Part shown: piece by piece, positions 19,063 through 19,137 of the stretch
Layout of the letters: each line of letters begins with the position of its first letter
Numbering within the stretch: position 1 is the stretch's first letter
DNA from: a bacterium
GTDB lineage: Bacteria; Patescibacteriota; Patescibacteriia; Magasanikbacterales; GWA2-37-8
Direction of reading: 5' to 3'
Length of the DNA: 60,419 bases
Assembly: GCA_043810165.1 (NCBI GenBank)
Contig: JBDROJ010000013.1
Location: forward strand, 1 to 60,419
Made by a program: the position numbers and the translations under genes
The notes under the pieces: model-generated
Seen by the model: only the letters and a program-made list of their open reading frames with translations
What the model was told of the DNA's origin: nothing
Databases searched by the model: none

Positions 19063-19137
19063 TGGTGGAGCGAGGGGGAGTTGAACCCCAGTAACTCGAG
19101 TGGTAATTCGAGTTGTGGCACCGGCCACACTCGCCCC
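19063..19137 (-). tRNA. Non-canonical tRNA-like gene B: 75 nt, encoded CCA, 8-nt anticodon loop AUUACCAC, G-U at the third acceptor pair
   Basis: Minus strand: GGGGCGAG-T-GTGG-CCGGTG-CCAC-AA-CTCGA-ATTACCAC-TCGAG-TTACT-GGGG-TTCAACT-CCCC-CTCGCTCC-ACCA. The architecture and length are identical to copy A. Confidence 0.6.

Follow-up and report, generated by a model that had tools for sequence, protein, structure and literature searches.

A tRNA-like RNA and a complementary small RNA form a predicted two-RNA module in Patescibacteria

Introduction

What are two tRNA-shaped sequences with eight-nucleotide anticodon-like loops doing beside a ribosomal protein gene cluster, and could they act as tRNAs? 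The question is raised by a 60,419-nucleotide (nt) stretch of DNA, here called the window, from a member of the Patescibacteriota (Magasanikbacterales, GWA2-37-8; contig JBDROJ010000013.1 of assembly GCA_043810165.1, positions 1 to 60,419 of the forward strand). A first-pass annotation of the window, made from the sequence alone, described two tRNA-like copies, A and B, and proposed that they share an anticodon but may be charged with different amino acids. We find that A and B are tRNA-shaped RNAs under selection, that each is accompanied by a predicted small RNA complementary to its anticodon-like arm, and that tRNA-like RNA and partner recur together, with different but matching sequences, in other Patescibacteria.

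Two tRNA-shaped RNAs in the window

The tRNA-like RNA B (GGGGCGAGUGUGGCCGGUGCCACAACUCGAAUUACCACUCGAGUUACUGGGGUUCAACUCCCCCUCGCUCCACCA) is encoded on the minus strand at 19063–19137, and its paralogue A (GGAGCGAGUGUAGCCGGUGCUAUAUCUCAACUUACCAUUUGAGUUUUUGGGGUUCAACUCCCCCUCGCUCCACCA) on the minus strand at 17360–17434. ARAGORN reports both as 'tRNA-???' with a 4-base anticodon 'tacc' at position 33, and both are recovered as cloverleaves in minimum free energy (MFE) folds and by covariance models (101 bits for B and 97 bits for A with model R1). Each is 75 nt long, and the segment lengths are identical in the two, as the first-pass annotation had it. Both encode CCA and have A73. The sole genuine tRNA in the window, a tRNA-Asn at 5156–5229, does not encode its CCA, unlike both tRNA-like RNAs, and neither covariance model (R1 or R2) finds a third tRNA-like copy in the window.

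The acceptor stem of B is 8 base pairs (bp) long (GGGGCGAG/CUCGCUCC) and includes G3.U70. It is followed by a 6-bp D hairpin with a CGGU tetraloop (UGUGGC-CGGU-GCCACA), an anticodon-like hairpin with a 6-bp stem and 8-nt loop (ACUCGA-AUUACCAC-UCGAGU), a 4-nt variable region (UACU in B, UUUU in A) and a T arm with a 4-bp stem (GGGG-UUCAACU-CCCC). The linker nucleotides at positions 8, 9 and 26 are missing in both A and B, and there is accordingly no U8. The MFE structures give stems of 8 bp (acceptor), 5 bp in B and 6 bp in A (D), 7 bp in B and 5 bp in A (anticodon) and 4 bp (T); we adopted 6 bp for the D stem, which the alignment supports, and 6 bp for the anticodon stem, as counted. The stems had been placed correctly from the sequence but were drawn too short. 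Both 8-nt loops, AUUACCAC in B and CUUACCAU in A, do contain the UACC core that had been pointed out.

Eleven positions distinguish A from B. Pairs 12-21 and 29-40 are changed on both sides (G-C in B, A-U in A), which agrees with the compensatory differences seen in the first reading; two others are changed on one side with pairing kept (3-70 is A-U in A where B has G.U, and 10-23 is G.U in A where B has G-C), and pair 25-44 at the top of the anticodon stem is broken in A (U.U). Loop and variable region account for the remaining four. The MFE is –35.9 kcal/mol for B (z = –4.8) and –28.8 kcal/mol for A (z = –4.9) relative to dinucleotide shuffles. When A and B are aligned with a homologue (L009), 98.6% of the cells are paired and six pairs are changed on both sides, against 36–60% paired in shifted registers, so the cloverleaf is supported far beyond chance. 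This is a tRNA-shaped RNA under selection, and the earlier preference for a selected cloverleaf over a decaying pseudogene is upheld by both the shuffle z-scores and the paired, covarying homologue alignments.

The third acceptor pair was also described accurately, with G3.U70 in B, A3-U70 in A and A73 in both. In B the set of identity elements for alanyl-tRNA synthetase (AlaRS) is complete (G1-C72, G2-C71, G3.U70, A73). Copy A, having lost the wobble pair, could indeed be charged differently, but its A3-U70 is a lone deviation within the family described below.

Partner small RNAs

The first-pass annotation described the loop and stems of the anticodon-like arm but missed the main constraint on it, complementarity to an antisense small RNA whose gene lies about 160 nt upstream of each copy and on the same strand. 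Small RNA B (19228–19297, minus strand) was identified from an inverted repeat (I6), a terminator scan and cofolding. Its 5' 18 nt, AGUGGUAAUUCGAGUUGU (19297–19280), which we call the guide, are complementary at 18 of 18 positions to nucleotides 22–39 of tRNA-like B, a stretch that takes in the last part of the 3' strand of the D stem, the 5' strand of the anticodon stem, all eight loop nucleotides and one nucleotide beyond. The guide is followed by a hairpin that mirrors the D arm and then by a terminator, AGAACUCCCUUCGGGGAGUUUU, at 19255–19234. A promoter scan places a perfect sigma-70 consensus match at 19304–19331 on the minus strand (TTGACA, 16-nt spacer, TATAAT; 12/12), the –10 box of which ends 6 nt ahead of the first base of the complementary stretch.

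Small RNA A (17527–17597, minus strand; inverted repeat I11) has the same scaffold and terminator (17553–17532), and its 5' segment AUGGUAAGUUGGGCUGUAG (17594–17576) matches positions 20–38 of tRNA-like A with 16 Watson-Crick pairs, two G.U pairs and one mismatch. Its promoter (17604–17631, minus strand) matches the consensus at 10/12 positions (TTGACA, 16-nt spacer, TATTCT) and also has an upstream TG. A direct repeat of 289 nt (17360–17648 and 19063–19348, 76–86% identity) includes A in one copy and B in the other, and from this alignment copy A with its small RNA at 17597–17527 is a diverged duplicate of the whole 289-nt unit, the duplicated unit being exactly the module.

The tRNA-like genes have candidate signals of their own. 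A terminator with a 12-bp stem and a T run lies directly 3' of tRNA-like B (19029–19059, minus strand; terminator scan), and putative extended –10 elements, read from the sequence, precede B (TGtTATAAT, 19154–19162, minus strand) and A (TGaTAAAAT, 17452–17460, minus strand); that of B is not flagged by the consensus scan, which demands a –35 box. With transcription start sites taken from promoter geometry, the B element implies a 5' leader of about 10 nt (~19138–19147) containing GGUGG, complementary to the 3' CCACC.

The predicted pairing is specific. Within the 60-kb window neither guide has any match with three or fewer mismatches beyond the tRNA-like RNAs (0.01–0.02 expected by chance), and the cofolding gain is –16.9 kcal/mol for the cognate B pair and –8.3 kcal/mol for the cognate A pair, as against –0.9 and –6.6 kcal/mol for the cross pairs. 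The cofolded duplex spans the entire 5' half of the tRNA-like RNA, of whose D hairpin the small RNA holds an antisense image.

A family of tRNA-like RNAs in Patescibacteria

Relatives were collected from species-representative genomes and metagenomes using a D-loop plus T-arm pattern, and are present in Gottesmanbacteria, Woesebacteria, other Patescibacteria metagenome-assembled genomes and many metagenomes, with at least 120 loci in the metagenome scan. They fall into three types. The gamma type (window A and B, L009, L092 and L138) has an 8-nt loop and, in the four members in which it was read (A, B, L009 and L138), an 8/4 fold, with 8 bp in the acceptor stem and 4 bp in the T stem. Beta-type members (L002, L005–L007, L012, L028, L093, L103, L108, L128 and others) have a 7/5 fold, a 3-bp D stem, an 8-bp anticodon stem and a 7-nt loop of the form CU-NNN-AA. 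The alpha type, with at least about 23 loci, is found in GC-rich bacteria and has an 8/4 fold, G3.U70 and an 8-nt loop that is mostly AUU-UGC-AG. A covariance model built from beta sequences only (R2) detects both B (42.5 bits, E = 8e-8) and A (E = 8.5e-7), and although these E-values are rough, such recognition of the window copies indicates that the types are homologous.

Pairing holds for 95% of cells in the beta alignment, with 12 pairs changed on both sides; compensatory changes are thus found across the homologues, and the random stem drift expected of decaying sequences, against which the first-pass annotation had set its cloverleaf, was not seen. It had also raised the idea that the G-U pair might be confined to one paralogue lineage, which is not so: G3.U70 is invariant in nine of nine beta members, where the neighbouring pairs 4–6 covary, and it is present in all other homologue acceptor stems read (L009, L092, L111, L128, L138, L108b and the alpha loci), leaving window copy A as the only member read without it. 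Because the acceptor stem is absent from the search pattern, this conservation is not an artefact of collection. Ordinary tRNA-Ala genes (L041, L140) are picked up by the same models through their acceptor and T arms, and these matches point to descent of the tRNA-like family from tRNA-Ala.

The anticodon-like loops combine constancy and variation. In the beta type C32, U33, A37 and A38 are invariant and only positions 34–36 vary, an invariance that pairing with the small RNA alone would not require. The central three loop bases across the family are GUC, CUC, GCG, ACG, AAG, GAU or ACC. By analogy the gamma loop can be read as N32-U33-(U/A)-NNN-A37-Y38, in which case the window loop would be ACC preceded by an extra U. 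To judge from the family comparison UACC is not special, as it is not conserved, and the anticodon shared by A and B, previously treated as a feature, is a local accident: loop and stem of the arm vary widely, and the copy at the syntenic position in L138 has the loop CUAGUCAU. We also considered whether these arms mimic genuine tRNA anticodon arms, as decoys or sponges, and rejected this since the stems differ widely among members with the same anticodon.

Covariation between guide and arm

A partner small RNA gene is present on the same strand, within about 40–160 nt, in all 18 of the beta and gamma modules examined; it lies upstream of the tRNA-like gene in both window modules and L009; in L138, L092, L111 and all of the beta loci it lies downstream. 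The L128 partner leaves its contig after 24 nt and was excluded from the complete set; all 17 complete partners have a TTGACA/TAnAAT-type promoter ending a few nucleotides before the complementary stretch, and a terminator. In the beta type the scaffold that follows the guide consists of a small hairpin, CAAAGAA and a terminator with covarying pairs. The complementary stretch is 12–23 nt long and pairs with the loop, the anticodon-stem 5' strand and the D-stem 3' strand; the first two are always covered, and its sequence tracks the variable arm locus by locus.

Counted over local alignments in which all non-Watson-Crick pairs were penalised equally, the duplexes of the 18 modules contain 270 Watson-Crick pairs, 15 G.U pairs, one A.C pair and three other internal mismatches (G.U versus A.C, binomial p = 5e-4). 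Drift of a DNA inverted repeat by transitions would yield equal numbers of G.U and A.C, and the excess of G.U therefore indicates that selection acts on pairing between two transcripts and not on an inverted repeat in the DNA. A DNA-level role, such as an invertible segment or attachment (att) site, was considered and set aside, the G.U/A.C asymmetry and the layout of promoters and terminators both speaking against it. In a complementarity scan the modules score 13–22.5 and unrelated and alpha-type loci mostly 7–11, with a few unrelated GC-rich contigs at 13–15.5. Comparison across these loci makes it very probable that the pairing of tRNA-like and antisense RNA is a selected functional unit.

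Several smaller features accompany the precursor ends. The predicted leaders of B and A (19138–19150 and 17435–17450, minus strand) contain GGUGG(U/A)G, complementary to the 3' CUCCACC(A), with GGUGGAG facing CUCCACC in A; the L009 leader shares this complementarity (CCGGUGGA), and in beta-type loci leader and trailer add to the acceptor helix, bringing it to some 12 bp. In this way the CCA end may stay hidden in the precursor until processing.

Comparison with known RNA families

Canonical tRNAs have a 7-bp acceptor stem, a 5-bp T stem, U8, linkers at 9 and 26, a D stem of 3–4 bp, a 5-bp anticodon stem and a 7-nt loop. The window RNAs depart from this throughout, with their 8/4 division, missing linkers, 6-bp D stem with 4-nt loop and 6-bp anticodon stem with 8-nt loop, and a scan of the window with RF00005 in gathering mode (29-bit threshold) returns the tRNA-Asn alone and neither A nor B. 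The tRNA-like reading therefore stands as regards the cloverleaf, but these are not ordinary tRNAs: they fall below the Rfam tRNA threshold and have the 8/4 fold, a D arm like that of tRNA-Sec and no linkers. The best tRNA-clan matches in Rfam E-value mode are tRNA-Sec for A (35.3 bits) and transfer-messenger RNA (tmRNA) for B (23 bits), both below thresholds of 47 bits.

The allo-tRNAs (Mukai et al. 2017, PMC5389517), which include both 8/4 and 9/3 forms, are alike in having a 12-bp acceptor/T stack divided 8/4, a tRNA-Sec-like body and very diverse anticodons, and the 12-bp acceptor branch split 8/4 is found in A, B, L009 and L138. They differ in having a long class II, serine-type variable arm and linkers, where the module RNA has a 4-nt variable region and an 8-nt loop; they are found mainly in Acidobacteria, Clostridia and Proteobacteria and not in Patescibacteria, and PMC5389517 does not describe an antisense partner. 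A subset of allo-tRNAs has G3:U70 with non-alanine anticodons and inserts alanine in Escherichia coli; allo-tRNA genes are associated with transposable elements and are often found close to toxin-antitoxin loci, and certain variants are lethal (PMC5389517).

The tRNA-like domain of tmRNA (RF00023) is similar in its acceptor stem (GGGGC...GCUCCACCA), G3.U70, UUCAACU-type T arm and alanine identity, and B has the corresponding G3.U70 and CCA end; the two ends of the tmRNA model align to B and several homologues, at 22–31 bits against 47. The module RNA differs in having no mRNA-like domain, tag frame or pseudoknots, being 75 nt in all with a complete anticodon-like hairpin, and ARAGORN finds no tmRNA in the window. 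The possibility of a two-piece tmRNA, in which the tRNA-like RNA is the acceptor piece and the small RNA the coding piece, was rejected, as the small RNAs have no conserved frame or stop codon.

The tymovirus tRNA-like element (RF00233, threshold 40 bits) is matched by B at 40.7 bits, so that one copy passes marginally, whereas A (31.6 bits) and L009 (32.5 bits) do not, and the alignment of B deletes 20 model positions. The likeness lies in a D-like hairpin GCC-GUGC, an anticodon hairpin, a T arm GGGGU.CAACUCCCC and a terminal ACCA; the viral element differs in its pseudoknotted acceptor arm, its valine anticodon CAC and its location at the 3' end of a plant-virus RNA, while the window RNAs have a plain 8-bp helix and lie on a bacterial chromosome by rpsL-rpsG-fusA. 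A viral origin was rejected too: a pattern scan of viral contigs was empty and the window is Patescibacteria chromosome. Judged from these alignments, the Rfam matches to tymovirus, tRNA-Sec and tmRNA models represent likeness of shape and an alanine-type acceptor end, and not membership. The tRNA-like RNA lacks defining features of canonical tRNAs, allo-tRNAs, tmRNA and the tymovirus element alike.

Two further groups offer analogies, one for the loop and one for the pairing. Plus-one frameshift suppressors of the sufD and SufB2 type and the yeast mitochondrial tRNA-Thr(UAG) have an extra loop nucleotide with U33 and a purine at 37, as do B (AUUACCAC), A (CUUACCAU) and the relatives CUUGUCAU and CUAGUCAU. 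The suppressors differ in retaining a canonical body with a single inserted base and cognate identity, whereas the module RNA has a remodelled body, alanine identity whatever the loop and a dedicated antisense RNA. Antisense and RNA-RNA toxin-antitoxin pairs (type I systems such as hok/sok, IS10 RNA-IN/RNA-OUT, SdsR/RyeA and CreTA) resemble the module in that a single-stranded 5' end attacks a hairpin loop and then a stem strand, in a strongly expressed antisense RNA (here predicted), and in being cognate-specific, variable, multi-copy accessory loci. The module partner is likewise a separate gene adjoining its target with its own promoter (12/12 for B, 10/12 for A) and terminator, and its complementarity covaries at the RNA level, differing in sequence among the 18 modules yet paired in all. 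The target here differs in being a complete tRNA-shaped RNA with aminoacylation identity, not an mRNA or a short toxic RNA. CreA itself acts through Cascade on a promoter and not by RNA-RNA pairing (PMC8501985). By analogy, the tRNA-like RNA appears most similar to an allo-tRNA or frameshift-suppressor tRNA under classical antisense control. No Rfam family was found for either the tRNA-like RNA or its partner, and no description of the two-RNA module was found in the literature searched in full text, including the topics of Patescibacteria, antisense, antitoxin and IS1595.

The rpsL region and its relatives

The closest relative found, L138 (ribosomal protein S7 85% identical), has a gamma-type tRNA-like RNA at the syntenic position, upstream of the same small open reading frame (ORF) and rpsL. 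This copy has G3.U70, the stem ACUAAA/UUUAGU, the loop CUAGUCAU and a 3' end ACUA, and its partner lies on the opposite side. The module is absent from the syntenic site in L139, which has a helix-turn-helix (HTH) transposase-like gene there, and in L140, which has AbiEii and RmuC genes instead. The small helical ORF lies beside the module both in the window (19422–19646) and in L138. These comparisons make the region upstream of rpsL-rpsG-fusA (19400–19960 in the window) a variable hot spot in this lineage, and mark the module as accessory.

Between the two modules there is a GC-rich island (17650–18640; 55–65% GC relative to ~37% in the genome) with two plus-strand genes, 17730–18014 and 18319–18639, encoding a 94-residue protein with no Pfam match and a 106-residue Csx3-like protein (Cas_csx3, E = 8e-6). 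Over csx3 and the following 150 nt or so, DNA identity to Patescibacteria contigs that are not otherwise related is 81%, suggestive of a mobile cassette; in L130 and L135 a TrmB-like gene lies upstream of csx3, and many of the 472 Csx3 homologues found are stand-alone proteins of about 100 residues. Csx3 was considered as a protein partner of the module and rejected, because eight other csx3 contigs have no tRNA-like RNA, including L130 and L135, which share the TrmB-like neighbour. A 68-nt direct repeat with 79% identity flanks csx3 (18130–18197 and 18728–18795), each copy containing a hairpin UCACC-UAC(C/U)ACAAGU-GGUGA. In the first copy the loop includes UACCAC, six bases also present in the loop of tRNA-like B. 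The match is probably fortuitous, although small RNA B could have a weak second site here.

Downstream of A, B and the L138 module there are recurring pieces (18860–19030 and 17163–17175, minus strand, and L138 5500–5810, minus strand) that include GGAGAGAGUGAGG..., a GC hairpin at 18904–18883 and the motif YCGAGUACUAC or CGGUACUAC. These may be another structured RNA; no Rfam match was found within them.

Associations with mobile DNA

Alpha-type RNAs (L001, L003, L008, L010, L021, L045, L061, L091, L097, L106, L115 and L125) lie about 300–400 nt from, and upstream of, an IS1595-family transposase gene in 11 loci or more and for the most part share its strand, and a conserved small ORF is often found upstream of the RNA. 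No antisense partner is detectable in alpha-type loci by the complementarity scan. From this arrangement the alpha-type RNA may be part of the insertion sequence or its preferred target, and no description of the association was found in the literature searched.

Some beta modules lie antisense inside an ORF that stays open through them (L103 598–1347, L054 1815–2708, L108 1177–2070 and 2950–3285; also L012 and L093). Its product is a conserved zinc-ribbon/HTH protein of some 250–300 residues in three loci, and in four loci elsewhere NYN-nuclease genes follow the beta-module ORF. In L108 and L103 a large surface protein contains an intein with the whole cassette placed between its N- and C-terminal splicing halves. 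A search of the window for homologues of IS1595, zinc-ribbon and NYN proteins found none.

Other tRNA-related genes occur near some family members. In L012 a tRNA-like RNA with a long variable arm and a GUC loop lies in tandem, about 150–260 nt downstream on the minus strand; in L051 (434–506) a tRNA of canonical appearance combines the anticodon CGG (Pro) with an acceptor stem containing G3.U70; and a second, orphan small-RNA-like gene with a different guide lies downstream of the module in L093.

Possible functions of the module

On the sequence features alone, the tRNA-like RNA would keep what is needed for processing, alanylation and an L-shaped fold: the alanine identity set, the D-loop GG, the UUCAACU T loop, a 12-bp stack and an anticodon-type loop. 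The anticodon-type arm is hypervariable across the loci compared, and the module is patchily distributed and duplicates as a unit. Our tentative preference is for a missense or frameshift tRNA, gated by its antisense RNA and probably accepting alanine, that serves as a toxin-antitoxin-like module, selfish or defensive, the whole mechanism being a proposal that may well need revision. The small RNA, made from the stronger promoter, would attack the tRNA-like loop with its free 5' end and then invade the anticodon-stem 5' strand and the D arm, so that the tRNA-like RNA is unfolded or sequestered, and the duplex would probably be marked for degradation. If the antisense RNA were lost, translation would be open to free alanylated tRNA-like RNA; alanine would then be placed at a non-alanine codon, or the frame shifted at GGU-A, and growth would stop. 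That the RNAs are expressed, that the tRNA-like RNA is alanylated, used by the ribosome and toxic, and that the small RNA neutralises it are all predictions. Such toxin-antitoxin or abortive-infection logic fits the hot-spot context and the allo-tRNA precedent. That the system is specifically an RNA-only toxin-antitoxin or abortive-infection module, with an alanine-accepting tRNA derivative of arbitrary (here four-base) anticodon, an antisense antitoxin, and orthogonal pairs spreading in Patescibacteria, is conceivable but on balance doubtful. Copy A, with its lost wobble pair and its weaker stem, promoter and partner pairing, gives the impression of a duplicate that is disarmed or in decay, not of a second specificity.

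Several points weigh against the gated mistranslation toxin. The D-plus-anticodon stack has 12 layers, like tRNA-Sec, as opposed to about 10 in canonical tRNAs, and with U8 missing and a T stem of only 4 bp, compatibility with EF-Tu and the ribosome cannot be assumed. Alpha-type relatives with 8-nt loops have no visible antidote, which toxic frameshifters would then lack. GUC is over-represented among the anticodons and may reflect ancestry or a specific role rather than free variation, and the homologue set is biased by the search pattern, which partly imposes the D-loop and T-arm invariance. Finally, an 8-nt loop need not mean four-base decoding, as the yeast mitochondrial tRNA-Thr(UAG) has one and reads triplets (PMC7609411).

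These points of geometry lend some weight to a pair with no ribosomal decoding at all, in which the tRNA shape serves processing, stability or recognition by a protein (RNase P, the CCA-adding enzyme, AlaRS or another), and the pair provides antisense control, copy-number control or an immunity determinant for a mobile or accessory element, much as in IS10 RNA-IN/RNA-OUT or plasmid RNA I/RNA II. We regard this as possible, if rather unlikely as it stands. The non-canonical geometry agrees with it, as do the ties of the superfamily to mobile DNA (IS1595, the zinc-ribbon ORF, NYN and inteins); the small RNA is an antisense image of the tRNA-like 5' half, as in a classical pair arising by inverted duplication, and the pairing sequences vary widely yet match, as incompatibility determinants do. 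It is harder to reconcile with the strict conservation of G3.U70, A73, C32, U33, A37 and A38, which is difficult to explain without AlaRS and an anticodon-loop architecture, and with the window itself, where there is neither an IS1595, zinc-ribbon or NYN homologue nor another guide match, and hence no visible third target.

An improbable explanation is that the window RNAs are working four-base UACC decoders of GGUA (or of GGU or GUA), B carrying alanine and A another amino acid, with the small RNAs tuning their level. Every isoacceptor class of tRNA is reported to be convertible to four-base decoding (PMC9094753). Consistent with such decoders, both copies have 8-nt loops with U33 and A37, the alanine identity set is present in B and lacking in A, and both genes have promoters and terminators. 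But UACC is not kept even at the syntenic locus of the closest relative (CUAGUCAU), the anticodon varies freely (GUC, CUC, GCG, ACG, AAG, GAU), and the absence of the module from other relatives means that no conserved recoding target can depend on it; the weaker stem, pairing and promoter of copy A also fit decay or disarming better than a second specificity.

The polarity of the pair could in principle be reversed, the small RNA being the effector or toxin and the tRNA-like RNA its sponge or antidote. The small RNA does have the stronger promoter and a conserved scaffold, and CreT (PMC8501985) is an example of an RNA toxin directed at the tRNA pool. We nevertheless consider this quite improbable, more so than four-base decoding, because the guides show no long complementarity in the 60-kb window other than to the tRNA-like RNAs, they are too variable for a conserved external target, and the arms are unlike genuine tRNA anticodon arms, with stems that differ widely even among GUC members. 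Degenerate tRNA pseudogenes or att-site remnants with a chance inverted fragment, which the flanking of a GC-rich island by two copies and the common use of tRNA genes as integration sites might suggest, are effectively refuted by the full-length repeats of only 79–86% identity with compensatory changes, the family covariation, the conserved promoters and terminators and the bias of G.U over A.C.

Significance

On a conservative reading, the window reveals a widespread, unannotated RNA gene pair in the poorly understood, uncultured Patescibacteria. Standard tRNA finders label genes of this family 'tRNA-???', tRNA-Asp or tRNA-Glu, and such mislabelling puts Patescibacteria tRNA inventories and inferences about their genetic code at risk of error. 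The links to IS1595 and to intein cassettes suggest a role of tRNA mimics in mobile DNA that has gone unrecognised, and naturally orthogonal pairs of tRNA and anti-tRNA could serve as switches to control suppressor or quadruplet-decoding tRNAs in genetic-code expansion. If the gated mistranslation toxin is correct, this would be, to our knowledge, the first natural tRNA-derived RNA with an anticodon arm gated by its own antisense RNA, and the first toxin to act by deliberate mistranslation through a mischarging tRNA, which would be categorically new if the tRNA acts as the toxin.

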